A stretch of 64,000 nucleotides of DNA from Elusimicrobia bacterium RIFOXYA2_FULL_47_53. Lineage in GTDB: Bacteria; Elusimicrobiota; Endomicrobiia; Endomicrobiales; XYA2-FULL-47-53. A program made the translations under genes and the position numbers. Of the stretch, positions 14,309 to 64,000 are shown piece by piece. Under the pieces are notes generated by a model, which made no database searches, was not told the origin of the DNA, and saw only the letters and a program-made list of their open reading frames with translations. Numbering within the stretch: the first letter of the stretch is position 1; the number at the start of each line of letters is the position of its first letter. The stretch lies in assembly GCA_001800315.1 (NCBI GenBank), contig MGVE01000017.1, positions 4,942-68,941 on the forward strand. Reading direction: 5' to 3'.

Positions 14309-14310
14309 GA

Positions 14311-21774: not shown

Positions 21775-21896
21775 ATTGTTATCCCTTAACTATCTCTATT
21801 GTTATACATTATAAATGTAAAATGCAAATAAATCAAGTGTGAAATATTTGTGAAATATTAATATAGGATATGTTCAACACTGCCAAGACACCAATA

Positions 21897-46872: not shown

Positions 46873-47022
46873 ACTATCGGCCTGTGGCTGAAAAGCTAAG
46901 AGCTGGCCGGTGTGGTGAATTGAGATGGGGGCTAAGTTTTACATCAAATTCACAAAAGTTTTTAATCTATTTTTCATCTAAAACGGAGTATTTGAACGAG
47001 GTGTATAGTATCAAAAAAAGCA

Positions 47023-47051
47023 TTGACAACAGCGGTAAACTCGCCTATAAT
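47023..47051 (+). promoter_or_regulatory. Perfect-consensus sigma70-type promoter of the small TM gene / giant ORF 2 unit
   Basis: TTGACA at 47023-47028, a 17-nt spacer, then TATAAT at 47046-47051. Confidence 0.7.
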
Positions 47052-47104
47052 TGTACCGGGTACGGATTTGAGAATTGTTTGAAACTCTTGTTCAATTTTA
47101 TTCT

Positions 47105-47614: not shown

Positions 47615-47628
47615 GCTGGGTTTTTTCT
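47595..47628 (+). terminator. Rho-independent terminator / possible attenuator between small gene B and giant ORF 2
   Basis: 'AAACCCAGCTTataaactAAGCTGGGTTTtttc': 11-bp perfect stem plus a T run. The loop/stem contains the TAA stop of 47105..47614, and the hairpin ends 31 nt before ATG 47659. Confidence 0.75.
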
Positions 47629-47658
47629 TTGCTTAATTCTTACTTTTGAGAGGGTAAA

Positions 47659-50600
47659 ATGAACATTCAAAAACTTAAGCGGAAGCTGATGGAAGGCGTT
47701 GCCCGGCCGGTCTGGGGAACTCTTAACGCTCCGGTGCCGGTTCTTCTGGAAACGGCCTCGGAGTATTTTAGCTTTATCCGCGCGGTAGCTATTGTCACGG
47801 TCACATGCTTTATCGTCTCCTCAATAGCGGGGCCGGCCATTGCCCAGGTTTCGCAGGTGGCGGAGGAAAACAGAAAATACGCGCAGGTTTTTGATGATTT
47901 CGTTCTTCCCTATACGGCCGCCCGCATTACAGGAGCAAGCTATTCCGCCAGCCCCAGGGTTGTAATTCAGATACAGGACCTTCACTGTCACGGCGAAGTT
48001 CAGCGCAATATAAACAGGGTTTTAAGCCTTGTAAACGAGAAGTATCCGGTCTCAAAGATCTATCTTGAGGGCGCCTATGGTTCTGTTGACACCTCCTGGC
48101 TTAATGCCATATCTGATAAAGAAATGCGGCAGGCTGTCGTTGAATCCCTCGTGGATCAGGGCAAGCTGACCGGCGTTGAATATTTCTCCGCTTCAGGAAA
48201 CTCAGTTCCGGTTATGGGGCTTGAGGATAAGGATATATATAACGCAAACCTTTTGCGTCTTGGCAGGATACTTGATAGCCAAGCGGATGTGGATAAGGCG
48301 CTTTCAGGAATTGAGTTGGAGCTTGCAAGGCTTAAAGCCAGGTACTACAACCCTAAACAAAAGGCGCTTGACATTCTATCTGCCAAATACAGAAAGGAAG
48401 AGGTAAAAACCAACGATTTCTACCGCGAGCTTAAAAAATTAGGCGATAAAAACGGACTTGACATATACGAGTACAGGAATATGACGGCATTTCTCGGGCT
48501 TATGGAGCTTGAGAAAGAGCTCAACTACAAGAGGATAAGCCGCCAGCTGCAGGAGTTTATAATAACACTCAAACAGCGCCTTCCCTACGACGCCTACAAG
48601 GTGCTTCTTGAAAAAATGAACGATTTCTCGCGTTTAGACGAGCTCTATGTTTACCTTATTAAACTTGACCGCGATTTTAAGTTGGGACTTTCTAATACAT
48701 TCCCGAATCTGAGCACTTTTTTCGCTTATATTGACGCAAGCCAGAAGGTAAATCCAGTTAATCTCGTTAATGAAGAGAGAAGGTTTGTGCGGGAACTGCA
48801 GAAAAAGCTTTCCGCCAATGCCACCGAGAAAGAAGTGGTTTTTATAGCGGATTTCTATTCAACACTTGCGGAATACTATACAAACCGCCTGACAGCGGAA
48901 GATTATGAATACTATTTGAAAAATGAAAGAGAATTTAAGGTATTGTGGTCCAAGTATTCGGATTCCTACTATTTGTCCGGATTAGAACCCTTTAACGCCA
49001 TTCTTAACGACTACTATGTCGCCAACATTGAGCGCAACAGGCGTTTTGTCAAGAATATTCTATCGGCCTCGGATACCCCGGCTGGAACAGAGGCGTCGCC
49101 TTATGTTAATAGTGTTTCTGAAACGCTGAAATCACTGAAAAATGCGACTGAAATTGACATTGTAGTAACCGGAGGTTTCCATACTTTAGGGTTGAGCGAA
49201 CTGCTTGCGGAAAAGAATATTTCGTACCTTGTAATAACCCCTAATGTCACAAAGGACACAAAGTATGCCAGCGATGTCTATAACGCTCTGGCTAAACAAC
49301 AGTTCAAAGTTCTATTAGGAGAGGAGAGGCCTTCAACCTCGGCCCAAATCCAGGGCCAAACGACCGATCGTTTTGCTAAGAACACGCCGCAGAAAGGCGC
49401 GTTAGCGTTGCCGGTTATTTCTGGAGATGAATGGGATGCGGGTTACATCCATTCCGCCACCTTGGCTCAAGGTGGTTTAGGGGCACTTGTCAAAGCGAAC
49501 AGCGATCCGAATTCAGTCGTAGGCCAAATCAACCGTGAAATTTTAAAGGACGGCAGAATTAAGATGTCTTACAATGGCGAAAATGAGTATTCACTCCGCG
49601 ACGGCAGTTACGGTAAAATAATACAAAAATACACCGTTACTCCGGAAGGTAATGTGGAGATCGTTGGTTCAAGCGAATTCTCGTCAAAGCCCCAGGCGTT
49701 TGGCCTGACCAGCAAAACCCAGCTGATTAGCGAAGTCTATATTTCCATGCTTTCGGTAGGCGTGTCAGCCGTTCCTTTTATGAAATTAGCCGAGTACACC
49801 TTGGCTTTTCAGAATATGTCGGTAAAGGCGCTTGATAACTTAGTCGGCAAGTCAAGAAGTTATGACGGCAAAACTTTCAAAATAGTTAATGATAGCAGGC
49901 TTGAACCCGCCAGTCAAAAGGCTCTTGCCGCGCTAAAGACAAAATTGTTGGAGAGAAGAACTGAGTTAAGGCAAATTACCGAGAAATTCGCCCCGGAAAA
50001 CACAAACGGTAGAATGCCGGTCACTATCAATGTTGTAGAGGGCGATGTGCTGCCTATTGACGATGATTCTCTCGCTTTTGCTACCGTTAAACTGGATAAC
50101 GGCACGCTTGTTTTATATATCACGGAAGGGCTTTTGAAGAGTATTTCCAGGATTCCGGCCGGCGACAAGAAGGAAAGGATTATTAAGTCGCTGTTGCAGT
50201 GGGAATTGTCCGAGTATATTTATCTTAACGTGGCGGATAACGCGCTTGAAACAAAGGACGGGCTCGGCCGTGTGGTAAGCCTGACTTATCGCGATTTCTA
50301 CAATAAAGAGATGAAAGAAGCGCAGGTTAAAGGGGATAAGTGGGAGTTCGCGGAACTCTTTGCTTTTGCAGATAGGGAAAGGGCCAAACTGCAAAAGCTG
50401 GTCTATGAAGAAGCCAAGCGGGTTACATTGGTTCCGTCCACCAGAAACTCAATAGATAAAATTTCCGATCCGGTTGAAAAGAGGCAGGCTTACGCGGCAG
50501 CAATAAGGTCTGCGGTTAGAGCATGGACAATCTCGTATTTGAACGAATACAAGAAGGAGCGCGCGGGTGATTTAGTCGCGTTAGTTGGAGAAATTACTCC

Positions 50601-53600
50601 TTCAAGTTTCTACAGGAACGCCGAGAGCGATGAATATGTGTTCGCGGTTGAAGAAAATGCCAGGGCGTTATCTTTAGATGACTTGATTGCGGGGATAAGA
50701 GAAAAACTTGTCAATGATCAGCTTTTGGGGCTTGGTATCGCGAAGGGCAGTCAGGAGGAGAAGGATTTCTTTAGATTGGAAGCGAGAATACCTGAAGCTT
50801 TTTATTCTATAAGCAATGAGTTTAATAATCTTATGCCCGTTAAGGCGGTTTTAACAAAATTAGAGGGGCCGCAGGATGCATTGACGGCTGCCGAGTTAAA
50901 GAATACGGACTTAGCGCGTAGCATTCAGGTCAAAGTTGTAATGAATGAGTTGAGTGACAAGGCCAATAAAATCAAGGCCGATCTTGTCCAAAAAGTGCTT
51001 CCGGCACAGATATACCGAAATATTCCAACAGCTTCCATTTTGGATCCTCTTATTAACAGGCTGAATATTAGCCAGTCGTTTGCCAAATTCTTTACGGTTA
51101 TTCTTGCCCCGGGCTGGGAAACCATTGCCCTGTATTTCGCGTTTAACGCGTTTGGCTTTGGATGGGCGGTTCTTGGTTTTGCTTTTGCTCATACCATAGT
51201 GGACTGGGTTGTAAGAACCAATCAGGATGGATTGGCAAAGGCATTCAGCATTAATAATCTGAAAAGCGATATAAGTAAGTTCTCTGTTCGGTTGCTCCTC
51301 GCGGGCGCTTTTGTGGTTCCTTTTGAATTTTTCTCTCCTATAGCGGCCGGAGTAATAAGCTTTATTACTCACGCGGTATACAATTATGCCGTTCTCAGTA
51401 GAGGGTGGTCGCTGCCCCTGGCCTCTTTGACAACCCCAGCTTTTGATCTCAATAAAGAAAATAGAAAATTGCGGATATATAGATTCCTTGACGAAAAATG
51501 TGGCATCAGAACGGATAAGTTGAACTCTAAAGAAGTTTTCTGGAAGGACGGTGTTAGAACTAATTTATATACCTGGATAGCTCGCAGGAGACTGCTTCCG
51601 GAAAGCACATTAACTGTCGCTTGGGGCGCTGCCCTTTCTGATGCGGCCTATATAAAGAGTCTTGATAAATCTAAATTAAGAGATTTTGCGGCCCAACAGG
51701 GTATTGATATTACAAATAGCAGGCAACCATGGGCTGATGTGACAAACTTATATCAGGAAAAATCAAGATTCTTTTCTTTGCTGCGTTCGGAATTATTTGG
51801 CTCAAAAAATATGACTTTTGACGAACTTAAATTTATTCCTGTCAGGGTAAACGATAAAGGCGAGTTTGAAATCATAGAATACCTGCTTGAAACAACAGAT
51901 AAGAACGGTAACGATAAAACCTGGGTCTCTCGTGAGTTTGGATTAACTCCGTCAAAATATTATTACGATAAGAAGCTTATGAAAGTGTCAATTAGACAGT
52001 ATATTGACGGCTATTCGGCTGTTAAACAAGAATTGGATGAGAAAAATTTGTTCTATGAAGAAGAGCTTGACAGGCTGATTGAAACCGGCGAAATAAGTAA
52101 TATTGGAAGATTCGGCAATATTATAAAGCCCGCTGTGATAGCGGTAGGTACATTCTTCTCAACAATGTTTTTAAGCGGCACGAGCTATGCGGCACAGGTT
52201 ATTCAAAAAGGGGACAGCCTGTGGAAAATAGCTAAAAATCAATTGATAAATTCGGGCATTTCGTCTCCCAGAAATGCCCAGATTTCTGAAATGGTAGACA
52301 AAATAAAGGAAGTAAATCCAGCCATTAATCCTAATCTGCTAAGAATTGGCCAGGAAATAAATGTTGATGTGGCGGAAAAAGTTCAGCCGAGTGTTCAGCC
52401 GCTTGTTGAAGCTGTAGCGAATACTCCGCAGGCCGCTGAAACTGCAGCCCAGGCAGTCACAAATGTTTCAGCTAACGCAGCGCCGGCGGCTGATGTCGTT
52501 TCTCAGGCACTTCCGCAGGTAGCCGATGCCGCATCAAAACTTGCCGATTTTTATCAGGCTGTAGAGCCGGGCGCAAGGCAAGGCGCTGAAATTGCATATC
52601 CTGTCGTAAATGCAGTTCAGAATGCCGTGCCAGCCGTCAATACAGCCGTGCCTTCCGTTAACATGTTTGATTCACTGGTAACATCAATGCAATCCACAAT
52701 TTTAGATGCTTTTACATACATTCAATCTATCGGTCAGTCATATCCGTCAATTGCGGCGACAGTGGGAATAATAGCGATCGCGGTCGGAGTAGTCTTTTTG
52801 GGATACAAGGCATTCTTGCGAAATAAGGCAGTTGAAACTCTTGTTTTTAGGACAAAAGATGAGGGGCTGAGAAGTAAGAACTTAACTTGGCTGTATGAAT
52901 CTAATAGGCCAATAGCCTTAAATACTGCTGCAAAAGACTACACATTAAATAATGTCAGGGAAATAATAAAAATAAACAGGCAGAGTAAAAATGGTGTTGA
53001 AGGGTTAAGCGGTGGGAAGATAAAAGTTGATTACAGCGACTCAGTGTTGAAGCAATATTCTATTTATGAACTCTCAAGGCTTGTTGAGGAGATAATAAGG
53101 CCCCAGCTAAGCACAGGATCAAAAATCAGGCTTAGTGTGATAAACGACTTAAAGCGCGCGCCCGGAGTTTCAATCAGTCTGCTTTACAGAGTTACAAACG
53201 GAGCATTTGGAAGTGTCTCGCTTAATCTTGCGGGCCATCCCGAGGCACGGTTGTTGTACGAGCAGGCCGGCATTTTCTTTGATTCCGGTTTAATAGTTCC
53301 GTTGTTAGCCATTGGAAAAGAGCTTTATGGCGCATCTTACGAGTTCCCCGAACCTAAAGATGTCGGACAAGAAGAAAGTATGAAAGAACAGGAATCCGTT
53401 CTTGCAAAGTCTCTGGAGACGGCCAGAAGAGTAGCCGCTCAGGAAAAAAAGATAGAGAAGCCTAATGAAATGGATGCTCTCGCCTCTGAGGTTGTGACCT
53501 ATATGCACGAAAAGGCGCGCTCCGGAATTCTGCTTCCTTGGCCGGTGTTTTCATTCCTATATAAACGCGGTTTTTTCAAAAAGTCGGCAGAAAAGTTCAG

Positions 53601-56600
53601 GTACGCCGCCGAGGGCCAGCGCAGGTTTACAATGCCGGAGTTGTTGGTAAGCGGCAGGGTAGCTAAGCTCGCCTCAGTTAGGCTTGCGGCTATGGGAAAG
53701 GGTGACGCTGAAACTAAGAAAAAAGAGCTTGAGATTGAGCGCGCCAAGGCTGAGCCTGATGCCGCAATAATCAATGAACTTGAGCGTTCAATTGACATGA
53801 TTGAAGCCAATGGGAAAATTGAAGCTTTAAGAAAAGAATTAGATTCTATAAACGCCGACATTAAAAAACAGGCCAAACAGGGAGTTGACAATCCGCTGAA
53901 GGGCAATGCGCGCAAGGGTGCTATAGAGTTTGAGATTGAAAGGAGTGAATTCAATCTGCTTAATATGAAGTATCAAGTTCAGAGCGAAATTAGAAACGAG
54001 TTTATTGCTAAGTACCAGGCGCTTGCGAAAAAAGAAGTCGGCGATATGGATTTCTCTTCCTATGACAAGCTGTTTAATAATATAGTTGACAAGATTAATA
54101 TAGTTGTTAAAGCCGCCGGCAATGATAAGGATATAGCCGATTTAAGCGAGATGCTCGGCCTTCCGTTAGAGGTGGTTGTGGGAGCCATTGAAGGGCACCG
54201 TATCGGCAGCGATAAACTTTATTTGGTAAACAGGTTAATAAAAGAACTGAATAGATACGGAAGCAAATACTCCTCCGCGCTTGAGATGCTTAACTACTAC
54301 AAGTACGATGTTGAGGCAAGGGACTTTGTGGCTGGCCTTGTGAAAAACGCGGACACCATAATACCGGATTCGTTTGTAAAGTCAAATCCCGCGTATTTCT
54401 ATGAATGGTTTAGAATTTCCTTGCAGGCTTTCATGGGCCTCGGCATCTATGTGCTTCCGGCCTTAATATTTTACGGCACAGCTTTTGTGTTTATGCCCAT
54501 TCCGATTATTTTCGGGGTAATATTCGGATTGATAACCTATTATGTCGCATGGGCTCCGGCGCACAAGTTCTCTCTTCATGTGACGGGTGTTTTTGTAAAA
54601 TGGTTCGGCAGGGGCGTAAGGGGTCACGAGAGAATAAAATATATTGACAGATATATTGACGACAAATATACGGCAGATGTTCCTTTGAGGGTTTCCAATG
54701 TAATCTCAAAGATTAGTGCGAGCGAGGATGATTTTGATGTTGCAATAAAATATCTCAGGCAGACTCTTGAAAGGGATATAGCGTTACTTAAAAGGCATCC
54801 TAATAATCTTGAATTTAACATAATAATCAGGTCTGATACCAATCCGTATAAGAGCGCGAGAAACAAGGAGATTGTTGACTATGAAATGAAGGTTATGCGG
54901 GAACTTATTGAGGAATACCGTGAGGAACTTCCCAATCTCAATATAGGCTATTTTAATATGGGCGCAAGGGAATGGGTTAATAACACTAATGGCAAACTAG
55001 GTCAGGGCGGTTTTGGAATGAAAGCGGGTGGTATTGCCCTTCAGATGCAGTTGTTTGAAGAGGGATATACCAAATCAAGAATATATGTTGATGAGTCACA
55101 CGAACATTCCATGCGTGACAACCCAGTCTTCTGTGCGGTTGTTGCAACAGATCTTGCTAAGATGCTGGGGCATGAAAAATCCCATGACACGAGAGATAAA
55201 GCGGCAAGGGGTGAACTCAATGAGAGTATTCATAGAGATATTCTTGCCGGTAATGACTTAAAGCTGACAAAAGATTACGGTTACAGAGATACGCTTTCAT
55301 TGCTTTCTGATGATAAGAATATAGTGCTTGAGGTTGGAGAAACTGACAAAATGCTCGCCATAATGCTTCATCCGGCTAACAAACATATAGTTATGACAAC
55401 TCCTCACATTGTGGTAACGCCGCCATATATAGATGGTGTTCCGCAATCAAGCTGGTGGTGGAAACTTATGAAGGTCTCGCGGGATATTCATAACGAATTT
55501 AACGCCCGCCTGATGGCTAGTATTTACGGCAATGGATCTGCTTTCTTCGGGAAGGGGGTCGTAAGACAGGGTAAGTATTATCAAAATGTCTTCAAAAGAG
55601 AGACGCTTTCTATAGCCAGAATACTTTCTCATGATTGGCAGGAATCAATATTCAGTGTTTACACTGAAGCGCTCTACGGGTCACTGAATTATAGCGTTGA
55701 GATTCTGCAAAAGTCTGAAGATGAAATGCTTCTGCAGGTGAATCTTAACGACGATACCAGATTTGTTAAGATAGTTTTTGACAGAAAAAAAGGCCAGGTA
55801 GAGGTTTATGAAGAGGATTACGCAGGCGGGGATGGTAAATTTACTCTTGCGAAGGTCTTTTTGCTGAAAGATATATGCGTAAGTACCGAGTTTAACGATC
55901 TGGCCGGCATATTAAAGCTTTCGCCGGAGGCGGCCAAAGATTTTAAAGAGCTCCAGAGTAAGGAAGTTCTTAGAGTTTACGATTTAGTGTCATCTGGAGA
56001 ATTGAAGAAAGTGAAAGATGAGAAGGATAAGAAAGAGTTTATAAGTAAAAAGTTGTCTGAATTTGAAAATCTGAGAGGTGTATCTAATCTCAGTGCTGCT
56101 GAAAAAGAAAAAGCGGTAGAGAATTACAAAAATGATTTGCTCGCGGCTTTTGATAAGAAACATATTTTGGACAAGAAAATCGGGGCTCATATGGCGGAAC
56201 TGGCCGAAAGAGCGGAGATTAAATTTAATGGCGACGCCCGCAAAATCGCGGAGTATATGTTGAGAAGAGGGAACGCTTATCAAAATCAACTGCTTGCCGA
56301 ACTTAAATCGGCGGAACTGGCGAGGAATATCCCTATAATAAAAGCTCGTATGATTGATGAATTTGGCCACTTAATGACGATTGATCATGTGTCCAAGATT
56401 GTTACAAACTCTTACGGCAATTCTTACAGCATGGGAGAGCGCGATCAGCTAAATCCGCTGACCTATCTTATGAGAGATGCCAGATGGCTCCTGGGCGATA
56501 TTCAGATGGCCAGGACAGAGCTTCCATATAAAGCATTTCTACCGCCTGCCCATCAAACGCATACTGAGGGAATTATGCGGCGTTTGCTTGGGAATTCATT

Positions 56601-59600
56601 TTTCCTTGCTTTTGTCGTGCTAAGCAATTTGATATGGATCTTTCCTACGGTATTAGCTTTGCCCGCCGTGGTGCCTATTCAGGTTGCTCTAATATTAATT
56701 ACTGCGTTCGGGATTTTATATAAAGACAGGATAGGTGACCCGTTCTCGTATGCCGTAAATATGGCAAAAGCAGAAGGAAGGGAGCTTTCGTTAGTGGGTA
56801 GGGTTGTAACATATATACCTCTGTTTTTTCAAGGTATTTTTGAGATCGTTGTAACAACACTTGTTTCTTTGCTGCTGGTTGTCATTAGTCCGCTTATTAC
56901 TTTCGCGATGTATTTGTACGAAAAAAGCGGAAAAAGCCCGTCGTGGACACCTTCCTCGGTTGTTTCAACAATGGAACTTAAAAAACCTATTTCCAGAAAA
57001 GAATTTGCCGATATGTCCGCGCGGCTTGAACTTGAAGGTCTTTCAAAGGATGAGATTCAAATGTTGAGGGATTCATTAAGTAAGGAAGGTAACGAGAAAT
57101 CAGAGATAATTTCGTACATATTGCAAAGCGCGCAAAATCAGGGGTTGGATATTAAAGCGATGCAAAAAGATATTAAGAGGATAGCCGGCGGAATAAGCCA
57201 AAAGGAATACAAAGATGTGCTTTTGTTTAAAGCGGTTAAGATTGGTATTTTTGCCGTTCTGACTTTCGGTGTGTTTATATGGCTTGGCGTAACCCCGGTA
57301 ACGGCATTTTCGGTTTATGGCATTTTGCCACTTTCATTTTCTTTGCTTGGGGGTATGCTGGCAATGAGATGGGCTGGACAGGTAAGAGCGTATTCTTCTT
57401 CCAGTACTCCGCTTTGGAAAAAAGGAGTAGCTTCAGCGGTTTTGGTTTCCATAATGGCTGGTAGTGTAGCCGGAGTTATGACGGCAAGGTCTGTGCCCAC
57501 TTACGATAAAAGCATGATTGAAAGAGCTTTGCCGCTGCTTTCAGAGAGCCCGGAAAGATATGGGTATAGCGAAGAGGTAAAAAAAGCCTTTGACCAAGTG
57601 AAGGAAAGCCAGGCCAGGGCAAATGCTTATGTGCCGAAAAGTACCGTGCCGGGCATGGCGCTCTCCGGGAAGATTAGCGATGTAGCGGCAGCTCAGGTAC
57701 CGCTGACAAAAGTTGAGGCCAAACCCGGGGTAGTAATGACCAAGCCTGCCGCCAGTGTTGATGTGGTCCTTCCGCCTATAAATGCCAAGGCCGGAAGAAT
57801 CAATACTGTTAGGGAAGTTTTTAGTGCTGATCTTTTGAAATTCATGAAGTATGCTAAAGTGAGAGCTGAAAGAAAGCCTCTCTCGGAAATATCGCTTCCT
57901 GATGAAGAAATAAAAAGAGGCGGCGGTGGCGAGTTGATTAAGACAGGCGCTGCGCTTGGTTTTAAAAGAACTCAAAAAAGTATTGCGTGGGCTGCCGTTC
58001 AAACCGTGGCAGCTTCGTTCTCGTCTTATATTGGTATTGGAATAAACCTGATTTCTAAGGTGGAAGCTATTGCTGTTATATGGGAGTACGGCGATAAATA
58101 TCCATGGCTTTCTCTGACCGGCGATATCTCGTCAACTGTTTTCTGGTCTGAATCGCGGTTGTATGCCGACAGGAGTATGGAGGATTTTGCCAGAATATAC
58201 AGGTGGGATGATATTGCCGCCATGTGGAAAGCTGGGGTGGCGGAAGATATCCCGGGTTATGAACGATATGAATACCTTCAGACAGCCGTTGTGACATTGC
58301 ATTACGCCGGACTGCCTGTTACCGAACAAAATGTGAATAAGTTTCTGGGCCATTTTACAAAAGAAAATATAAATAAATTGGTCGCAAAATATCCTGCTTT
58401 GGAGAACTCATTAAGGCCGTATCAACTGCTTCCGGAAAAAGCCAGGACAGGCATTAAACTTTTCGGTATACTGAACCTGCTTCTTCCTCCGGGTATGGGC
58501 GTCCAGTTGCCGACTGATCTGCCGGTAATTACTTTAGCGCAGGTGGCACACCAGGTTATTTCCGGGGACTCGGGCACCGTGGAGGTATTGACGGCGCTGG
58601 CAATAGCAAATGATATGACGCTTGAGTCGCTGCTTGATAGAATGGGTTTTGGGTATGTAAACGAGGCTATTGATAAGAAATGGGCTGTCAATGAAAAGGT
58701 TTTTGCCGAGTATGTAAACAGGTTCCAATCAGATATGAAGATGCAGGGTCTGGAAAAACCCGAAGATTTCATGAAACCTGAATCCGTCACATTGTCTGCA
58801 CATATGGCGAATTATCAGATGGTTGAGGCTGTTTGGGACACTCTTGTAAATGAAGGTTTGCGTTCGGGCCGTCCGTCTAACAACGAAATAAGGGAAATAG
58901 GCGAAAAACTGAATAATAATATGGTTGAGATGTGGGATATTTTCAGTGTCTGGGAAAGAGGGGGTAAGGAAAAGTATCCAAAAATATTTAAGCAGGCAAT
59001 GATCTCTAAGGGTGTTGCTGATCAATATGCGATGAACATGTATCTGGCGATGGAGTTAGCAGGCAAGGATAAGACGGTTCAGGAAAAGGCAAAGCAAGAT
59101 TATCTTATGCTGTTGAAAAAACTTCAGTTTGATCCCGCGCTTGCTGTTTATAATCAATATGGTTTTGTTGAAGAAGGTATTGTTAATGATTTGATGTTTA
59201 TGAATGAAGTGGGCCGTAGAAAGCTTTCTTATGACCCGCGGAGTGACGAGGCGAATAATAAGGATTTGATTGAGAATATAAATAAAACTATAAATGGGCA
59301 GCGGTTTGAGGCCAAACAGCTTACGGCCTTGTTGTGGCTGGCTTCTCTTGATGAGGAGCTTAGGGCGAATGGCTTTGTTCATACTGATGAAAATGGCAAT
59401 AAAAAATACGCGGAATATGAGGTTAAAACTTCTGACAGGGGGAATGTGCTGATAAAAGTTACGCCCTTAAATGCCGCTAAGACATATTTGGAATTGTATG
59501 GTCAGGGTGTGAGGTCTTATCCGGATATTCCATGGTCAAAGGTTGTGGGAAGCTATCTCATGCTTTTTTACCACGGTCATTTTGGAAAAGTTAGTGACCT

Positions 59601-62600
59601 GATGAATCATTCCAAGGATGATTTTTCCGATGCGCAAAAATGGTTTACTCAGGGCTATTTAATGCAAGAGTATTCTATGTCTAAAGAAGAACACGCGAAG
59701 TTAAGGTCGGAGGTGAATAGTGCTTTTGATGAATACCAGAGACTTGTGTCAAAGGATAAGTCGGCTTTGAATCAGCGGGACAGAGATTCTATCGCTGATT
59801 ATGAAAATAAAGAACTGACCCTCGCCAAAAAGGATCTTATTGAAGTCGTTATGAAGGACAAATATACAAAGATTGGTATCACGGATGAAGAAGAAATAGA
59901 AATGATGCACAGGAGGTCCGAAGATAAGGAGAATCTTTTCGGTGTGTATACATTTATCTCTAATATGATTATTTCGGCCAGGGTAAATAATATTGATGCT
60001 GAGGAAAATGAGCTTATCAGGGTTTTTATGAAAGCCTATAATTTCGGCACAAAAAGTATGGATTTTTCTGAAAAGAATATGGTCCCATGGCTGGATGTGT
60101 CACTTTTTATCGTAATAAACTATTTTAAGACAGATTTTGCCGCGCAGTTCAATGAGAAGGATATCAGGTCGCCTGACTCTAAGATAAAAATATTGTTTGA
60201 AAAACTCAATGCTCCGATGCGTTATTCCAATAGGTGGCTTTTTAATAAGTATGACCCGGCCGGCAGTGGGGAAGCTCCCGAAATTACGGATAAACAGATT
60301 GAGCTGATTGCCCGTAAGATGTATGAGAGGATGGGCTATGTTGACCAGCAGATTGATATTCTTATTTCTATATTAAATACTGACCAGGCCGGAATAATAA
60401 AACTATATACCGCGTATATGTTTGTAGGTACCCTGCTGGAAGACTATGAGAAGAACAGAGTTAAGCAGATTGATGCGGATAAGGACCCTGTTAAAGACCT
60501 CGGCGAAGTTGACAAAGCGTCAAAACTGGCGGAGATGTATTTTAAATTATACCTGAAAGGCAAGGGTGGAGACTATCAAAACATACCCTGGTGGGATATC
60601 ACCAGGTTCATGCTTCAGGCGGAGATACTGGCAGGATTTAAATCGGAGGAAGAAGTTTTTGAGTATTATAAGAAAAGCTTTGGGTATGTGAATGCCTGGC
60701 TTGCGGATAAAAATTTTAAGGTGCCGGAAGATTTTGTTATTACGGTTGTAAAAAAGCCATATGGGGATTTGAATTACCCTGAAAGTAAAATAGATGTTAT
60801 TGTGAGAGAAACCTTGCCGCAGCTGAAACTATACACGGCATATATGTTCGCGGCTAAAATCATTGAGAGCCTTGATTATAATGGCGTTAAAGTTGACCCC
60901 CAGGAAGTTATCGCGGACTTTATGGAACTTTACAAATATGGCATTGCCGAGCAGAAAGACAAGCTGGGTGCTATACCATGGTTTGATTTTGCGAGTTATG
61001 CCGTTGTTGAATATCATGTTAATAAAGCCGACAAAGGCTGGAAAAATGTGAAGGAATATATTAACTCGGATTATTATAAGGGAACGCTTCCGTTAGTTCA
61101 GCGGTACATTACTGACTCCACGAAGCTTCCTGATGGCTTTGCGTACGAGAATGCCTTTAGAACCGAGCTGGTCATAAAGAATAAAAACACCGATCCGCGA
61201 AACGACCTTAGTAAGGAAGAAAACAGAAAGCAGTTATTGGAGATAAATGCCGTTCTCGGAGATCAAAGCGATGCTGTTAAGAATTTTAACGGTTACCTCG
61301 TCTTGGCCTCGCTTAAATTAAAGTATGAGGCAAGGTTTGGAGCGATAGCTGACAGGGATGAAAGGGCATGGTTGGAAACTGCCGCGTCCAGGCTTTTAAA
61401 CGCGTGGAAGACCTATCCCGGCAAGTATCCGAATCTGCCGATGATGAAGTCCGGTGTGTTGGAAAGCATAGTAATGGATTCCATGGTTTTCAGCGATCCT
61501 CTTGAAATAGAAAGAGCTCTTGGTTTGGATGAAGCAAATAGGCTAATGAGTGCGGATAATAATCTAGGGGTTTCTCAGGCCGTAAAAGATGACATCGCGA
61601 AAGAATTTACTCTTAGAACCAAAGTTGAGATAAAAGATGAGGCGGTCAAGGAGTATATGGCGGTGCTGACGGCTGTCAATCTTCTGAAAGTAAACTTTAT
61701 GGATGTAAGTAACGAAAATATTAATAAAGTGCTGGAAACGCGCTTGGCTATAAGGAATTTAAGCGCAAAATATCCCAGGCTTAAAATTAGCGAAAAGAGG
61801 GGTAATGCCGAGACTTGGACAATCTTTGCCATTGAGAACGGAATTGCTGTCGGCGACCTTGAAACAAAATATTTTGAGGTTATTTCCGCTAATTTTGACA
61901 AAATAAAGAGTTCTTTTACAGATGATGAAATGGCGATAAAGTTAAATAAAGGCTTGATTTCAGCTTTGATTGACCGTCGTACCGCGGCGGCGGAGTTCGG
62001 CGCCGAAGAGGACATGCTCGCGGATCCCGATATTGATGCTGACGATATAGTAGTAGAATTGGGAAGGTATCAGGTATCTAAAAGTATCGCATTGGGGCAG
62101 GATGTTGCTGATTTAGCTGTTTTCTTTGAGCTTTCAGGCAAGGTTAAGGCTGCGAACAAACCCCAGCTTGATGCGATGACAAATTCTTATAATAATGTTT
62201 TATCAAAACTGGATCTGAAGAATAGAGTGGAATCCAGTGATGATCTTAAGGAACTGATATCATATATTGTGCTTACGGAAAAAATTCAGGGAAAGTGTGA
62301 TTCGTTTGCTTCATCCATTGTCGCGTTAAAAAATGCTGTTTATGGCCCGGCAGCAACTCCTGAAATACGGGAAGCTTTCAGCCAATTTAAAGGCTTTGAT
62401 GAGCTTAGTGCCGGTATAGTTAAGAACCTGACAGCGATAAACAATAGCACGCCGGTCCTTGGAAAAATTGAATCCGTGCGAAAAGATAATGAAAGGTTGG
62501 CGGCATCTCTTGAATTTTCCTGGGCATTGTGGATGACTTTAAAAAATGTCCCTATCGGTGCTCTTGAGGAAATTATTGGCAATATTGAGTATGTTGAGGA

Positions 62601-64000
62601 AAAATACAGAGATGTAATCGGATTTATACCTTCGGATGAATCCGGTGTTACATTTACAGACGCTCTTGGAGTATATATCAGGGGCGATTACTGGAAGCCA
62701 ATGTATTGGCTTAACGCGGAGTATAAAAAAATACAGCCTGAATGGTGGGTAAATAATATTGTTAAAGAGAGTTATCAGAGGCTTTTTGATAAAGTTTTGG
62801 ACGACTCCGATCCTGATGGGAATGACGCGAAACTGCTGAAAGCATTTTATAAGAAGTATGAGCGTAAGCGGCCGTTGGGAGACGGAAAGGGTTTATTTGA
62901 CGAAATTGTAGATGACCTGGCCAACAACGGAGCCTATGAGTTAAACAAATCAGGCGAATTGGTGAGAGCTGACAAAAATACTTATAAGTTGCGAATTGAA
63001 TTGGCTCAGGAGCTTTACAATGCGAAAAACGAGATTTTAAATGATATTCAAAAGCAAAGGCGTTCAGATACTTTTATTAGGGAGGATGTGTCCGCGGCTT
63101 CAAAGTTGCTTAATGAGTTGCTGGATTCTCCTTCCCAGATGAAGGCGGAAGCCGCAAATATTGAAAATATACTTAATAGAAATCTTTATATGAATAAGAA
63201 AATGGCTTTGTTGATTTCGGTTGCGATGGCCGGATTGCTGTATGTTTTATGGAAAGTGTTGGATTTCTTTGGTAGGTCGCGCCCGCTGCCGGCGTCTTCG
63301 GTAGGCTTAGGATTTACAAAGGATGAAGTTCTTTCCAGAGTTGCAATGGGGAGCGCCGAAGGGTCGCAGGTTCACAATCTTGCGGTATCCTTGGTTGACC
63401 GTATGTTCGCTGACAGCGATAAGAGGACAGTTCTTAGTAAGGGAGAAGCGCGTTTAAGACATTCTGAAAGCTTAGACTTGCTGTCTGCGGCTATTTCATC
63501 AAATACAGATCTGCTGAAGAGCGTAGGAGTAAACAAAAACAATATTGAGGTTCTGGTATCGGATCAAATGCTGACAAAAGAAAATTCGCTCAGCTTTGGT
63601 TTAGTTCAGGTGCGAGATGGGAAGCTCTATTTTATTGTTTCCGAGATATTCTTAAACAGGCTGACTGACAGCGATAAAGAGATGCGTATAGGTCAATTTG
63701 TCAATTATTCTCTTAGAGAGTACGCTGCTATCAATGCGAAGAATTCGGATGAATATAACAAATTTGTCTATTCCCTTGATTCAAAGGTCGATGAGAAGGA
63801 TAGGACAAGGAGTGCTGTGAATTACAGGAAATATGCCATGGCAGGCACTAATGAAGATTTGATAGATATATTGAGTTTTGCAAAAAATAATATCCCCATT
63901 GATATAACTTATAAAAAAGCTGTTGGTGGCTTGCTTGCTGCGAATAAAGATGTCAAGGGCAAAAAAGCGGCGATAAAAGCGCTACTTACGGTTGCTAAAC
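47659..64000 (+). CDS. Giant mosaic membrane protein 2, 5' partial (at least 5,447 codons, runs off the window)
   Basis: Not in the ORF track because it has no stop in the window. Hand translation of frame 1 from ATG 47659 (GAGAGGG RBS) to 64000 found no stop codon. Only short ORFs are listed in other frames over these 16.3 kb. Confidence 0.85.
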   Translation, partial: MNIQKLKRKLMEGVARPVWGTLNAPVPVLLETASEYFSFIRAVAIVTVTCFIVSSIAGPAIAQVSQVAEENRKYAQVFDDFVLPYTAARITGASYSASPRVVIQIQDLHCHGEVQRNINRVLSLVNEKYPVSKIYLEGAYGSVDTSWLNAISDKEMRQAVVESLVDQGKLTGVEYFSASGNSVPVMGLEDKDIYNANLLRLGRILDSQADVDKALSGIELELARLKARYYNPKQKALDILSAKYRKEEVKTNDFYRELKKLGDKNGLDIYEYRNMTAFLGLMELEKELNYKRISRQLQEFIITLKQRLPYDAYKVLLEKMNDFSRLDELYVYLIKLDRDFKLGLSNTFPNLSTFFAYIDASQKVNPVNLVNEERRFVRELQKKLSANATEKEVVFIADFYSTLAEYYTNRLTAEDYEYYLKNEREFKVLWSKYSDSYYLSGLEPFNAILNDYYVANIERNRRFVKNILSASDTPAGTEASPYVNSVSETLKSLKNATEIDIVVTGGFHTLGLSELLAEKNISYLVITPNVTKDTKYASDVYNALAKQQFKVLLGEERPSTSAQIQGQTTDRFAKNTPQKGALALPVISGDEWDAGYIHSATLAQGGLGALVKANSDPNSVVGQINREILKDGRIKMSYNGENEYSLRDGSYGKIIQKYTVTPEGNVEIVGSSEFSSKPQAFGLTSKTQLISEVYISMLSVGVSAVPFMKLAEYTLAFQNMSVKALDNLVGKSRSYDGKTFKIVNDSRLEPASQKALAALKTKLLERRTELRQITEKFAPENTNGRMPVTINVVEGDVLPIDDDSLAFATVKLDNGTLVLYITEGLLKSISRIPAGDKKERIIKSLLQWELSEYIYLNVADNALETKDGLGRVVSLTYRDFYNKEMKEAQVKGDKWEFAELFAFADRERAKLQKLVYEEAKRVTLVPSTRNSIDKISDPVEKRQAYAAAIRSAVRAWTISYLNEYKKERAGDLVALVGEITPSSFYRNAESDEYVFAVEENARALSLDDLIAGIREKLVNDQLLGLGIAKGSQEEKDFFRLEARIPEAFYSISNEFNNLMPVKAVLTKLEGPQDALTAAELKNTDLARSIQVKVVMNELSDKANKIKADLVQKVLPAQIYRNIPTASILDPLINRLNISQSFAKFFTVILAPGWETIALYFAFNAFGFGWAVLGFAFAHTIVDWVVRTNQDGLAKAFSINNLKSDISKFSVRLLLAGAFVVPFEFFSPIAAGVISFITHAVYNYAVLSRGWSLPLASLTTPAFDLNKENRKLRIYRFLDEKCGIRTDKLNSKEVFWKDGVRTNLYTWIARRRLLPESTLTVAWGAALSDAAYIKSLDKSKLRDFAAQQGIDITNSRQPWADVTNLYQEKSRFFSLLRSELFGSKNMTFDELKFIPVRVNDKGEFEIIEYLLETTDKNGNDKTWVSREFGLTPSKYYYDKKLMKVSIRQYIDGYSAVKQELDEKNLFYEEELDRLIETGEISNIGRFGNIIKPAVIAVGTFFSTMFLSGTSYAAQVIQKGDSLWKIAKNQLINSGISSPRNAQISEMVDKIKEVNPAINPNLLRIGQEINVDVAEKVQPSVQPLVEAVANTPQAAETAAQAVTNVSANAAPAADVVSQALPQVADAASKLADFYQAVEPGARQGAEIAYPVVNAVQNAVPAVNTAVPSVNMFDSLVTSMQSTILDAFTYIQSIGQSYPSIAATVGIIAIAVGVVFLGYKAFLRNKAVETLVFRTKDEGLRSKNLTWLYESNRPIALNTAAKDYTLNNVREIIKINRQSKNGVEGLSGGKIKVDYSDSVLKQYSIYELSRLVEEIIRPQLSTGSKIRLSVINDLKRAPGVSISLLYRVTNGAFGSVSLNLAGHPEARLLYEQAGIFFDSGLIVPLLAIGKELYGASYEFPEPKDVGQEESMKEQESVLAKSLETARRVAAQEKKIEKPNEMDALASEVVTYMHEKARSGILLPWPVFSFLYKRGFFKKSAEKFRYAAEGQRRFTMPELLVSGRVAKLASVRLAAMGKGDAETKKKELEIERAKAEPDAAIINELERSIDMIEANGKIEALRKELDSINADIKKQAKQGVDNPLKGNARKGAIEFEIERSEFNLLNMKYQVQSEIRNEFIAKYQALAKKEVGDMDFSSYDKLFNNIVDKINIVVKAAGNDKDIADLSEMLGLPLEVVVGAIEGHRIGSDKLYLVNRLIKELNRYGSKYSSALEMLNYYKYDVEARDFVAGLVKNADTIIPDSFVKSNPAYFYEWFRISLQAFMGLGIYVLPALIFYGTAFVFMPIPIIFGVIFGLITYYVAWAPAHKFSLHVTGVFVKWFGRGVRGHERIKYIDRYIDDKYTADVPLRVSNVISKISASEDDFDVAIKYLRQTLERDIALLKRHPNNLEFNIIIRSDTNPYKSARNKEIVDYEMKVMRELIEEYREELPNLNIGYFNMGAREWVNNTNGKLGQGGFGMKAGGIALQMQLFEEGYTKSRIYVDESHEHSMRDNPVFCAVVATDLAKMLGHEKSHDTRDKAARGELNESIHRDILAGNDLKLTKDYGYRDTLSLLSDDKNIVLEVGETDKMLAIMLHPANKHIVMTTPHIVVTPPYIDGVPQSSWWWKLMKVSRDIHNEFNARLMASIYGNGSAFFGKGVVRQGKYYQNVFKRETLSIARILSHDWQESIFSVYTEALYGSLNYSVEILQKSEDEMLLQVNLNDDTRFVKIVFDRKKGQVEVYEEDYAGGDGKFTLAKVFLLKDICVSTEFNDLAGILKLSPEAAKDFKELQSKEVLRVYDLVSSGELKKVKDEKDKKEFISKKLSEFENLRGVSNLSAAEKEKAVENYKNDLLAAFDKKHILDKKIGAHMAELAERAEIKFNGDARKIAEYMLRRGNAYQNQLLAELKSAELARNIPIIKARMIDEFGHLMTIDHVSKIVTNSYGNSYSMGERDQLNPLTYLMRDARWLLGDIQMARTELPYKAFLPPAHQTHTEGIMRRLLGNSFFLAFVVLSNLIWIFPTVLALPAVVPIQVALILITAFGILYKDRIGDPFSYAVNMAKAEGRELSLVGRVVTYIPLFFQGIFEIVVTTLVSLLLVVISPLITFAMYLYEKSGKSPSWTPSSVVSTMELKKPISRKEFADMSARLELEGLSKDEIQMLRDSLSKEGNEKSEIISYILQSAQNQGLDIKAMQKDIKRIAGGISQKEYKDVLLFKAVKIGIFAVLTFGVFIWLGVTPVTAFSVYGILPLSFSLLGGMLAMRWAGQVRAYSSSSTPLWKKGVASAVLVSIMAGSVAGVMTARSVPTYDKSMIERALPLLSESPERYGYSEEVKKAFDQVKESQARANAYVPKSTVPGMALSGKISDVAAAQVPLTKVEAKPGVVMTKPAASVDVVLPPINAKAGRINTVREVFSADLLKFMKYAKVRAERKPLSEISLPDEEIKRGGGGELIKTGAALGFKRTQKSIAWAAVQTVAASFSSYIGIGINLISKVEAIAVIWEYGDKYPWLSLTGDISSTVFWSESRLYADRSMEDFARIYRWDDIAAMWKAGVAEDIPGYERYEYLQTAVVTLHYAGLPVTEQNVNKFLGHFTKENINKLVAKYPALENSLRPYQLLPEKARTGIKLFGILNLLLPPGMGVQLPTDLPVITLAQVAHQVISGDSGTVEVLTALAIANDMTLESLLDRMGFGYVNEAIDKKWAVNEKVFAEYVNRFQSDMKMQGLEKPEDFMKPESVTLSAHMANYQMVEAVWDTLVNEGLRSGRPSNNEIREIGEKLNNNMVEMWDIFSVWERGGKEKYPKIFKQAMISKGVADQYAMNMYLAMELAGKDKTVQEKAKQDYLMLLKKLQFDPALAVYNQYGFVEEGIVNDLMFMNEVGRRKLSYDPRSDEANNKDLIENINKTINGQRFEAKQLTALLWLASLDEELRANGFVHTDENGNKKYAEYEVKTSDRGNVLIKVTPLNAAKTYLELYGQGVRSYPDIPWSKVVGSYLMLFYHGHFGKVSDLMNHSKDDFSDAQKWFTQGYLMQEYSMSKEEHAKLRSEVNSAFDEYQRLVSKDKSALNQRDRDSIADYENKELTLAKKDLIEVVMKDKYTKIGITDEEEIEMMHRRSEDKENLFGVYTFISNMIISARVNNIDAEENELIRVFMKAYNFGTKSMDFSEKNMVPWLDVSLFIVINYFKTDFAAQFNEKDIRSPDSKIKILFEKLNAPMRYSNRWLFNKYDPAGSGEAPEITDKQIELIARKMYERMGYVDQQIDILISILNTDQAGIIKLYTAYMFVGTLLEDYEKNRVKQIDADKDPVKDLGEVDKASKLAEMYFKLYLKGKGGDYQNIPWWDITRFMLQAEILAGFKSEEEVFEYYKKSFGYVNAWLADKNFKVPEDFVITVVKKPYGDLNYPESKIDVIVRETLPQLKLYTAYMFAAKIIESLDYNGVKVDPQEVIADFMELYKYGIAEQKDKLGAIPWFDFASYAVVEYHVNKADKGWKNVKEYINSDYYKGTLPLVQRYITDSTKLPDGFAYENAFRTELVIKNKNTDPRNDLSKEENRKQLLEINAVLGDQSDAVKNFNGYLVLASLKLKYEARFGAIADRDERAWLETAASRLLNAWKTYPGKYPNLPMMKSGVLESIVMDSMVFSDPLEIERALGLDEANRLMSADNNLGVSQAVKDDIAKEFTLRTKVEIKDEAVKEYMAVLTAVNLLKVNFMDVSNENINKVLETRLAIRNLSAKYPRLKISEKRGNAETWTIFAIENGIAVGDLETKYFEVISANFDKIKSSFTDDEMAIKLNKGLISALIDRRTAAAEFGAEEDMLADPDIDADDIVVELGRYQVSKSIALGQDVADLAVFFELSGKVKAANKPQLDAMTNSYNNVLSKLDLKNRVESSDDLKELISYIVLTEKIQGKCDSFASSIVALKNAVYGPAATPEIREAFSQFKGFDELSAGIVKNLTAINNSTPVLGKIESVRKDNERLAASLEFSWALWMTLKNVPIGALEEIIGNIEYVEEKYRDVIGFIPSDESGVTFTDALGVYIRGDYWKPMYWLNAEYKKIQPEWWVNNIVKESYQRLFDKVLDDSDPDGNDAKLLKAFYKKYERKRPLGDGKGLFDEIVDDLANNGAYELNKSGELVRADKNTYKLRIELAQELYNAKNEILNDIQKQRRSDTFIREDVSAASKLLNELLDSPSQMKAEAANIENILNRNLYMNKKMALLISVAMAGLLYVLWKVLDFFGRSRPLPASSVGLGFTKDEVLSRVAMGSAEGSQVHNLAVSLVDRMFADSDKRTVLSKGEARLRHSESLDLLSAAISSNTDLLKSVGVNKNNIEVLVSDQMLTKENSLSFGLVQVRDGKLYFIVSEIFLNRLTDSDKEMRIGQFVNYSLREYAAINAKNSDEYNKFVYSLDSKVDEKDRTRSAVNYRKYAMAGTNEDLIDILSFAKNNIPIDITYKKAVGGLLAANKDVKGKKAAIKALLTVAK
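47950..49260 (+). other. N-terminal domain with Tiki/ChaN/TraB-superfamily-like motifs (tentative)
   Basis: 'VVIQIQDLHCHGEVQRNINRVLSLVNEKYPVSKIYLEGAYG' ... 'IDIVVTGGFHTLGLSELLAEKNISYLVI'. This follows the GxxH...E...GxxH pattern. Recognised by eye only. Confidence 0.3.
52195..52371 (+). other. LysM peptidoglycan-binding domain
   Basis: 'QVIQKGDSLWKIAKNQLINSGISSPRNAQISEMVDKIKEVNPAINPNLLRIGQEINVDV'. It is bracketed by TM segments 52120-52194 and 52750-52806. Confidence 0.75.
54640..56510 (+). other. OpgH / cyclic-glucan-synthase-like family-2 glycosyltransferase domain with a large insertion
   Basis: 'FNIIIRSDTNP', 'GMKAGGIAL' (55021-), 'LLSDD' (DD 55309-55314), 'GNGSAFFGKGVVR', 'ILSHDWQE' (SHD 55627-55635) and 'RDARWLLGDIQ' (56473-56505). 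TM clusters lie at 54415-54560, 56578-56920 and 57235-57480. Confidence 0.65.
59440..61480 (+). repeat. Tandem divergent ~130-170 aa helical repeats within giant protein 2
   Basis: Recurrent '(E/K)LY..G......(I/V)PW.D' cores at about 59470, 60020, 60530, 60910 and 61390. 'KLYTAYMF' occurs at 60403 and 60826. Confidence 0.6.

Follow-up and report, generated by a model that had tools for sequence, protein, structure and literature searches.

At the inner membrane, OpgH synthesises β-1,2-glucan, which it then passes into the periplasm; OpgG and OpgD are GH186 β-1,2-glucanases (PMC11842490). For Cgs, the cyclic β-1,2-glucan synthase of Agrobacterium, roles have been assigned to the active-site residues, among them the uridine diphosphate (UDP)-binding D527 and the catalytic base D739 (PMC10901819). 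Here we describe a relative of both synthases in a 64,000-nt stretch of DNA (hereafter the window) from Elusimicrobia bacterium RIFOXYA2_FULL_47_53 (contig MGVE01000017.1, positions 4,942–68,941). It is a module of 1,054 amino acids (aa) within a giant open reading frame (ORF), giant ORF 2, and we put the probability at roughly two-thirds (0.68) that it is a membrane-integrated processive polysaccharide synthase-translocase of the Cgs GT84/OpgH superfamily, situated inside a giant multi-domain envelope protein. An initial annotation, made from the sequence alone, had proposed an OpgH/cyclic-β-glucan-synthase-like glycosyltransferase (GT) within a giant protein, and this held: by profile and by fold, the closest solved relative is the GT84 enzyme Cgs. 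The module differs from both known enzymes in belonging to a distinct, rare clade with two traits of its own, namely a DxD motif that has become D-[D/N]-K-N (hence D-x-K clade) and a β-rich insert between the SHD and RxxRW motifs.

Transmembrane (TM) segments were called as hydrophobic 19-mers on the Kyte–Doolittle scale, and an AlphaFold2 (AF2) model of the module was built on a 22-sequence family alignment. With residues numbered from the start of the module, and local model confidence given as the predicted local distance difference test (pLDDT), its parts are:

54340..57501, plus strand: Cgs/OpgH-like synthase module, 1,054 aa (module aa 1–1054, giant-protein aa 2228–3281)
54415..54534, plus strand: N-terminal TM helices before the catalytic domain (Kyte–Doolittle peaks 1.9–2.4; AF2 helices 16–51 and 53–69)
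54640..55653, plus strand: GT-A catalytic core of alternating strands and helices (AF2 strands E116–124, E157–165, E200–206, E319–324 and E352–360)
55657..55863, plus strand: insert part 1, a β-rich subdomain of ∼69 aa (AF2 strands 442–508, pLDDT ∼84–92)
55864..56415, plus strand: insert part 2, a helical Lys/Glu-rich extension of ∼184 aa (AF2 helices 529–551, 561–576, 586–628 and 633–678)
56584..56901, plus strand: three TM helices after the RW helix (Kyte–Doolittle peaks 1.9–2.5; AF2 helices 736–767, 777–811 and 818–862)
56926..57222, plus strand: soluble helical insert of ∼99 aa between the TM groups, starting at the conserved W869
57235..57480, plus strand: three closing TM helices (Kyte–Doolittle peaks 1.6–2.2)

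The module was homologous from end to end with stand-alone proteins of ∼1,086 aa and with modules of other giant proteins, and BLASTP found no second copy of it within the window. The initial annotation had predicted that TM helices flank the catalytic part, and the hydrophobic 19-mers at 54415–54534, 56584–56901 and 57235–57480 bore this out. The N-terminal helices aligned with the Cgs TM region ahead of GT84, the GT-A core with Cgs GT84 itself (by both hhalign and HMMER), the helices after the RW motif with the TM regions of Cgs and OpgH, and the closing helices with the C-terminal TM region of the relatives P0002–P0005, Cgs and OpgH. Between K-x-G and the DxD position, ∼70 extra residues were present in the whole family.

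A word-indexed database of 5.8 billion proteins returned only three distinct relatives of the module, all of them stand-alone, ∼1,086–1,090 aa long, unnamed and without a Pfam domain. An exhaustive HMMER scan of 1.84 billion representative proteins, with the window module and its stand-alone relatives (P0002–P0004) as the query, matched 51 proteins, which fell into four groups: modules in giant proteins of 4,762–7,397 aa, proteins of 1,245–2,508 aa, fragments, and small proteins of 555–746 aa. The same profile reached P0037 and P0038, two small proteins with canonical motifs, at E ∼ 1e-18 (1.84e9 proteins), and P0038, a distant relative, was alone in clearing the Pfam gathering threshold for PF00535 (Glycos_transf_2; 24.5 versus 23.3 bits). 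P0037 and P0038 belong to a canonical sister clade, which links the module to the known enzymes. A profile of five sister-clade sequences matched the GT84 region of Cgs with 116 bits (E = 1.6e-32) and E. coli OpgH with 68 bits (E = 4e-18), and by hhalign the D-x-K clade matched the sister clade with 100% probability (E = 5e-60, 611 columns). In NCBIfam, five sister-clade members matched only MdoH/OpgH models, down to E = 5.7e-24, at scores far under the equivalog cut-offs; among family members at large, nearly all matches were to MdoH/OpgH (best 84 bits versus a cut-off of 419), and no other family matched more than one member.

Direct comparisons with Cgs agreed. The D-x-K clade alone matched it by hhalign with 95% probability (E = 3.5e-8, 351 columns), and the C-terminal TM region matched OpgH with 72% (E = 3.4e-5). 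The match to GT2, OpgH or GT84 models that the initial annotation implied appeared at the family level only: nothing was significant for the single sequence, and the 22-sequence family profile (A3) matched the cryo-EM structures of Cgs (8RF9/8RF0) at E = 6.4e-21 in three colinear stretches, which cover GT84 together with the TM helices before and after it. A plain hidden Markov model (HMM) search fails for the module and, read naively, would have counted against the initial annotation by that annotation's own criterion; the relationship becomes visible only through a family profile, through intermediate sequences or through a structure model. A 4-sequence profile was too narrow for this purpose: against the PDB it returned only 14-3-3 proteins, spurious matches from the Lys-rich N-terminus of the relatives, and against the single OpgH sequence hhalign recovered only the RW motif, with 5% probability.

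The structure model had a mean pLDDT of 79.6 and a predicted template modelling score (pTM) of 0.77, and it showed a GT-A fold docked to a TM bundle. In a Foldseek search of the PDB, the best matches were three Cgs entries (E = 2.8e-7 to 1.3e-6), followed by Xenopus hyaluronan synthase (6.7e-4), BcsA (8.2e-4) and then chitin synthases, plant CesA and Fks1, so that the cellulose-synthase-like fold expected from the initial annotation was found. All of ranks 1–29 were membrane-integrated processive synthases, with unrelated, low-probability matches only lower down. Taken together, the profile, hhalign and fold statistics rule out a chance resemblance of motifs.

Residue equivalences were drawn from alignments with E. 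coli OpgH (MAFFT) and with Cgs (HMMER and hhalign), and all three agreed. The motifs of the module are:

54829–54840, plus strand: RSDT with D166 (54835..54837), equal to the UDP-binding Cgs D527 and the nucleotide-binding Asp of OpgH LSDS
55018–55032, plus strand: MKAGG with K228-A-G230 (55021..55029), equal to OpgH K-S-G-N and Cgs R-K-R-G-K
55306–55320, plus strand: SDDKN with D324-D325-K326-N327 (55309..55320), in place of DxD (Cgs D624-A-D626, OpgH D-A-D)
module residues H344-P-x-N347: equal to Cgs H-P-I-N, a conserved motif
55546–55557, plus strand: FGKG with G404-K-G, equal to Cgs G-K-G, a conserved motif
55627–55644, plus strand: SHDWQE with S430-H431-D432 (SHD 55627..55635), the catalytic-base motif (Cgs D739, OpgH SHD)
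56473..56487, plus strand: RDARW with R712-D-A-R715-W716, the RxxRW motif (Cgs RQHRW with R773, OpgH RDRRW)

The six motifs that the initial annotation had placed in OpgH order were thus all present and in register by each of the three methods. Its reading of LLSDD as the DxD equivalent has to be corrected, since the triad is D324-D325-K326 and the second Asp is an invariant Lys. Of the Cgs catalytic set D527/D624-x-D626/D739/R773, the module accordingly has D166, D324, D432 and R715, with K326 at the position of D626, and the metal site is not an intact DxD but D-D-K-N. In the AF2 model, D324 sits at the C-terminal end of strand E319–324, as DxD does in a GT-A fold, and the RW motif opens an interface helix (706–726) ahead of the TM helices. 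Both the catalytic-base Asp and the RxxRW on the interface helix are therefore in place by the 22-sequence alignment and the model.

In that alignment, H431 and D432, aligned with LSHD of Cgs, were invariant, as were R712 and W716, with R715 nearly so; G230 was invariant and K228 nearly so. The full set of 13 invariant positions (G230, D324, N347, P355, R381, G404, K405, H431, D432, R712, W716, G719 and D720) stands against a mean column identity of 17% across several phyla, which argues for retained catalysis. The position of D166 was more variable: the window module and its relatives from Omnitrophota have D, the stand-alone proteins have N, and the others have G or A. Judged from these alignments, the donor side appears remodelled and the acceptor side (SHD, RW) invariant.

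D[DN]KN was found in all 45 clade sequences inspected, with the Lys-Asn fixed. These include 14 loci of GTDB species representatives, from Omnitrophota, Elusimicrobia, Actinomycetota, Clostridiales and Chloroflexota (Brevefilum) as well as two bins labelled Planctomycetia. Every named relative is a 'hypothetical protein', including the nearest ones, Omnitrophota proteins of 2,508 aa with 37–40% identity. Lon, encoded at window positions 3516–5897, had 73–83% identity to homologues in metagenome-assembled genomes (MAGs) of Endomicrobiales and other Elusimicrobiota and 75% to that of Endomicrobium proavitum; this organism's Lon was present on 13 contigs in the database, the longest of them 390 kb. 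An Elusimicrobiota host combined with module relatives closest in Omnitrophota hints at lateral transfer of the module together with the long tail that follows it in giant ORF 2.

The canonical sister clade (P0037, P0038, P0048, P0049 and P0053) consists of small, stand-alone, unannotated proteins of 555–746 aa with textbook motifs (xSDT, K-x-G, S-D-A-D, F-Y-G-K-G, S-H-D-F and Q/R-x-x-R-W). They are homologous with the module over 611 columns and likewise have ∼70 residues inserted between K-x-G and DxD. What sets them apart from the D-x-K clade is that D-A-D is intact and that only 33–40 aa separate SHD from RW. One further sister-clade protein, P0046 (591 aa), has D-T-N for DxD and S-S-N for SHD and has lost the RW motif; it is probably, from these motifs, a dead enzyme in an otherwise canonical clade.

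The spacing between SHD and RW, estimated at about 280 aa in the initial annotation and measured here as 282 aa, is far longer than that of Cgs (33 aa) or of E. coli OpgH (39 aa). Over every D-x-K-clade sequence having both motifs it ranged from 103 to 282 aa, against 33–40 aa in Cgs, OpgH and the sister clade. The window module has the longest, followed by an Elusimicrobia relative (L006) with 249 aa. The insert had been described as helical and Lys/Glu-rich, which is correct for the ∼184 aa of its second part (Lys plus Glu 24%) and not for the first ∼69 aa, which are predicted to form β strands. The β subdomain (about 70–100 aa) is common to the whole D-x-K clade; the helical extension, with two helices of ∼45 residues at pLDDT ∼50–75, is confined to the window protein and missing from P0002–P0005.

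In five metagenomes or MAGs (L019–L023), the module is divided between two genes that adjoin or overlap (1060–3885 and 3854–10795 in L021), and the break lies inside the insert. The first gene (941–1,183 aa) encodes TM helices plus the GT-A core and stops shortly past SHD, and the second (2,313–2,347 aa) begins with the β subdomain and continues with RW, TM helices and the long tail; the HMM ranges were verified in L019. The insert therefore marks a natural boundary between a catalytic half and a channel half, and the two halves are separable. Its position between separable halves and its enlargement in giant proteins suggest a regulatory role or a docking site for further parts of the giant protein.

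The split lineage also provided the sole genomic context that points to a product. A conserved lipoprotein gene (∼1,065 aa) follows the split pair in four loci. In L021, the only split-lineage contig that reaches far enough to show genes past the lipoprotein, the operon (1060–19039) continues with a TolC-type OEP-repeat protein of 1,268 aa and then a 414-aa protein of the MdoG/OpgG family (66.8 bits versus a cut-off of 25, E = 2.3e-18). Its gene content gives this operon the look of a glucan system that spans the envelope. Just upstream of the split pair in L019 lies a gene for a GlgC-type nucleotidyltransferase (NTP_transferase plus LbH_GLGC; 1–1212), a single occurrence that could be a hint of ADP-glucose as donor.

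In frame 1 of the window's plus strand, 5,450 codons without a stop run from 47650 up to the window end, with a first ATG at 47659 just behind a Shine–Dalgarno-like GAGAGGG, and the claimed protein length of over 5,400 aa proved sound. L002, a separate public assembly for this organism, matches window positions 42629–56742 letter for letter except for one scaffold gap of 10 N (L002 9799–9808, window 52427–52434), which the window sequence closes in frame. Because of this gap, the public gene calls of L002 break giant ORF 2 into pieces of 1,621 and 1,381 aa. In a third assembly, again of the same organism, P0054 has 99.9% identity over giant-protein aa 1095–4966. With independent assemblies in agreement, giant ORF 2 is not an assembly artefact. 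Its parts besides the synthase module are:

47659..64000, plus strand: giant ORF 2, >5,447 aa, containing the synthase module and running past the window end
giant-protein aa 39–57: signal-anchor TM segment
47830..49338 (aa ∼58–560), plus strand: N-terminal 'X' domain (BLASTP, alignment)
52198..52365 (aa 1514–1569), plus strand: peptidoglycan-binding LysM domain (Pfam PF01476, 23.7 bits, cut-off 20.9, E = 4.7e-5)
giant-protein aa 1697–1715: strong TM segment, followed by a stretch of ∼530 aa before the module
57481..63174 (aa 3275–5172), plus strand: long, internally repeated tail (colinear BLASTP matches)
giant-protein aa 5183–5201: further TM segment after the tail

The tail of ∼1,900 aa had colinear BLASTP matches to P0007, P0008, P0033/36/40/43 and L006, is also conserved with the second gene of the split lineage, and matched neither Pfam nor PDB sequences; by these alignments it appears to be a conserved companion of the synthase module. 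Module and tail together (aa 1936–5172) are colinear with the 2,508-aa Omnitrophota proteins. Furthermore, an ORF of at least 5,628 aa in the Elusimicrobia MAG T1Sed10_83R1 (L006, 2575–19459) is colinear with giant ORF 2 throughout at ∼25% identity, with X domain, module (including its 249-aa insert) and tail in the same order, so that the giant architecture is conserved within the phylum. The X domain, which was found together with the synthase module in P0010, P0020, P0023 and L006, has invariant QDxH, EG and GGFHT in the alignment. Its AF2 model (pLDDT 73.5) has an α/β core with a helical insert of ∼290 aa and no significant fold match; sub-threshold matches to HopBA1, RRSP and ChaN (Pfam ChaN E = 0.13) give a hint of an EreA/ChaN/Tiki-like hydrolase fold. 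LysM sits between a weak hydrophobic segment and the strong TM helix, which agrees with a periplasmic N-terminal third of the giant protein. Counting strong TM segments only, a topology that places X and LysM outside the cell and the GT core within it would be self-consistent. Outside the module, giant ORF 2 had no match among PDB sequences.

The remainder of the window contains:

upstream: housekeeping genes tig, clpP, clpX, lon, a class-V aminotransferase gene and serA
upstream: transport genes for an ABC transporter, a TolC-like OEP protein and AcrB
18430–24746, minus strand: four consecutive ORFs of 283, 610, 158 and 949 aa without a Pfam match
29224–46872, same orientation as giant ORF 2: giant ORF 1, 5,882 aa
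47075–47614: ORF of 179 aa between giant ORFs 1 and 2, of no known family

Giant ORF 1 starts with a region that includes two Peptidase_C39 domains, and around aa ∼4,400 it matches DEAD/ResIII helicases weakly. Upstream of the giant genes, the four minus-strand ORFs lie between those for AcrB and a TPR protein. Neither a sugar-nucleotide gene nor one for MdoG/OpgG was found in the window, nor did BLASTP find in it any counterpart of the neighbours of the 2,508-aa Omnitrophota genes (L008) or of the L021 partners (the 1,065-aa and 1,268-aa proteins and MdoG).

Several observations weigh against an active synthase of this superfamily. Taken alone, the module matched nothing in Pfam, the GT2 models PF00535 and PF13632 included, and nothing among PDB sequences by phmmer, and its only NCBIfam match was to MdoH over the RW region, which was not significant (E = 0.065–0.08); with HMMER, the D-x-K-clade HMM reached Cgs only at E = 0.09. 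The Foldseek TM-scores are low (TMq 0.15–0.25), which we attribute to inserts making up one third of the query and to the 2,800-aa length of Cgs. Neither MdoG nor a sugar-nucleotide gene nor a TolC-type partner lies beside the giant genes, no neighbour recurs among the stand-alone relatives (L001, L003, L015 and L018), whose surroundings also lack sugar-nucleotide and OpgG genes, and the MdoG association was seen in one locus only, L021, from a distant split-gene lineage. Within the active site, the second DxD Asp is gone, as a dead enzyme would also show, and the first nucleotide-site Asp varies between D, N, G and A across the clade, which suggests a remodelled donor site. The main rival is consequently a pseudo-enzyme that has kept the synthase fold without polymerising anything and would serve as a glycan-binding or glycan-conducting membrane anchor or scaffold in the giant protein. 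The Lys for Asp in every clade member, the variable first Asp and the large insert between catalytic base and RW would all be compatible with this, and the clearly degenerated motifs of P0046 indicate that activity loss does occur in the family. We nevertheless regard a pseudo-enzyme as unlikely, because the replacement is a fixed Lys-Asn and not random decay, and because of the 13 invariant positions: SHD, RxxRW, K-x-G, G-K-G and the first DxD Asp are kept across six or more phyla at ∼17% mean column identity. Moreover, activity without metal is on record for GT-A enzymes whose DxD has become DxN or NxN.

At the other extreme, the module could be a plain OpgH or Cgs orthologue, merely fused to other domains, that makes osmoregulated periplasmic or cyclic β-1,2-glucan by the canonical Mg/Mn-dependent mechanism. 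Its motifs are colinear with those of both enzymes, NCBIfam matches are almost only to MdoH, and one relative has an MdoG-family gene in its operon. The scores, however, already suggest a placement outside OpgH and GT84, with the module reaching 11.3–11.6 bits on the NCBIfam MdoH models against an equivalog cut-off of 829. Together with the altered DxD, the SHD–RW spacing of 282 aa instead of 33–39, the lack of GH94 or any other Pfam-detectable Cgs domain and the lack of opgG in the window, this makes orthology quite improbable; the OpgH- and Cgs-like features belong to the canonical sister clade and not to the D-x-K clade. The combination of a remodelled donor site and an intact acceptor site could also be explained by a glycosyltransferase with a different donor, for example ADP-glucose or a non-nucleotide donor, or by a transglycosylase. 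The Lys at the second DxD Asp and the variable first Asp, next to invariant acceptor-side motifs, would fit, as would the gene for a GlgC-type ADP-glucose pyrophosphorylase just upstream of the L019 split pair. That neighbour was seen once, though, K-x-G and HPxN are kept as in the UDP-glucose enzymes Cgs and OpgH, and D166, the first Asp, is present in the window module, and we therefore consider a change of donor very improbable.

On balance, the module would most likely be an active, possibly metal-independent, processive glucan synthase-translocase. The cytoplasmic GT-A core would extend a chain at its non-reducing end, using a nucleotide sugar as donor, with D432 as the base and the RW helix holding the acceptor end, and the chain would reach the periplasm through the TM helices of the module itself. 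K326 may stand in for the divalent metal by neutralising the diphosphate leaving group, for which DxN and NxN enzymes of the GT-A fold provide a precedent. The donor would most likely be glucose and the product a β-1,2-type glucan; we infer both from family membership and from the MdoG association, as we infer activity itself from the conserved active site. The insert would act as a separable regulatory or docking domain, enlarged here by a predicted helical extension of ∼180 aa.

As a more tentative proposal, which we think rather less than even odds would favour, the D-x-K clade may form a new class of processive synthase-translocase. In this class, a Lys would replace the metal, the two halves would be separable at the β domain, and the enzyme would be hard-wired into envelope-spanning giant proteins of Elusimicrobiota and Omnitrophota, where it would link the polymerisation of glycan in the cytoplasm to LysM and hydrolase-like domains outside the cell. 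If so, such coupling may serve, for example, attachment to or manipulation of other cells. A processive GT2/GT84-type synthase with D-x-K for a metal site and a core that tolerates an inserted domain or a gene split would directly test how far membrane-embedded processive synthases depend on the metal and on a contiguous core. In practical terms, the clade is invisible at Pfam and NCBIfam thresholds, and a profile such as A3 would annotate it. The assignment gives a concrete, testable function to a stretch of ∼1,000 aa in the otherwise dark giant proteins of Elusimicrobiota and Omnitrophota, and it suggests that these giant proteins make or export a glycan and are not devoted to cell-wall degradation only.

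Among known systems, Cgs (ChvB/NdvB) of Agrobacterium tumefaciens (8RF0/8RF9/8RFE; PMC10901819) was the best match of the module both by profile and by fold. The two share the order of TM helices, GT-A core, RW interface helix and TM helices, the motifs xSD, K-x-G, HPxN, G-K-G, SHD and RxxRWxxGD, and a Trp in the loop after the third post-catalytic TM helix. They differ in that Cgs has D626 where the module has K326, lacks the ∼70 extra aa between K-x-G and D-x-K, and has 33 instead of 282 aa between SHD and RW. The Tyr autoglycosylated in Cgs (Y694, in the IF1-homology loop) corresponds to E386 in the module's conserved RDIHNE loop, in the HMMER alignment only. In Cgs, GT84 is followed by a cyclase and a GH94 phosphorylase; in giant ORF 2, Pfam and PDB-sequence searches detected neither GH94 nor another Cgs-type domain, and unlike in Cgs the module is embedded in mid-chain of a protein of >5,400 aa. 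The motifs LSDS, KSGN, DAD, GHN, SHDF and RDRRW of E. coli OpgH (MdoH), a GT2 enzyme, all align in order with the module, but two of them are altered there, D-A-D to D-D-K and G-H-N to G-K-G; the module has the large insert and no opgG in the window, although the MdoG/OpgG-family gene in the operon of one relative (L021) is reminiscent of opgGH.

More distantly, BcsA, hyaluronan synthase, chitin synthase and CesA matched by fold (E = 7e-4 to 2e-2, ∼10% identity), with which the module shares a GT-A core under a TM bundle, a catalytic Asp and (Q/R)xxRW on an interface helix. It differs from the BcsA class in having no PilZ or other known regulatory domain and no intact DxD. Plant CesA inserts (P-CR and CSR) lie before the catalytic base, whereas the insert of the module lies between the catalytic base and RW.

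For the substituted metal site, the nearest parallels come from unrelated GT families. LtpM of Legionella has DxN, is active in ethylenediaminetetraacetic acid and needs both the D and the N (PMC6393602), and BoGT6a of Bacteroides has NxN and is metal-independent, with Lys231 and Arg243 contacting the diphosphate (PMC3961637). As in the module, the second DxD position has no carboxylate, and basic residues have been proposed or shown to stabilise the diphosphate; both enzymes are soluble and non-processive. We know of no metal-independent enzyme of this type with a Lys at the DxD position itself.

Giant proteins with glycosyltransferase domains, the 'Archaeovorins', have been reported from Omnitrophota (bioRxiv 10.1101/2023.11.21.568195); another paper on giant proteins brings up glycosyltransferase domains in a different context only. 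The Archaeovorins resemble the proteins described here in their very long ORFs and many TM helices, and their C39 peptidase and SecA/DEAD-like domains are as in giant ORF 1; the present host belongs to Elusimicrobiota and not Omnitrophota, and its proteins are of ∼5–6 thousand aa. A membrane-integrated synthase module of the Cgs/OpgH type is not mentioned in the passages of the giant-protein papers on glycosyl, glucan or transmembrane features. Compared with all of these systems, the module would work like Cgs GT84 and OpgH and, judged by its motifs, scores and domains, is a member of neither, as it fails on an intact DxD, on the NCBIfam MdoH thresholds and on the multi-domain architecture of Cgs. 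It is best filed as a distinct, unannotated clade in the GT84/OpgH branch of membrane-integrated GT2-type synthases.

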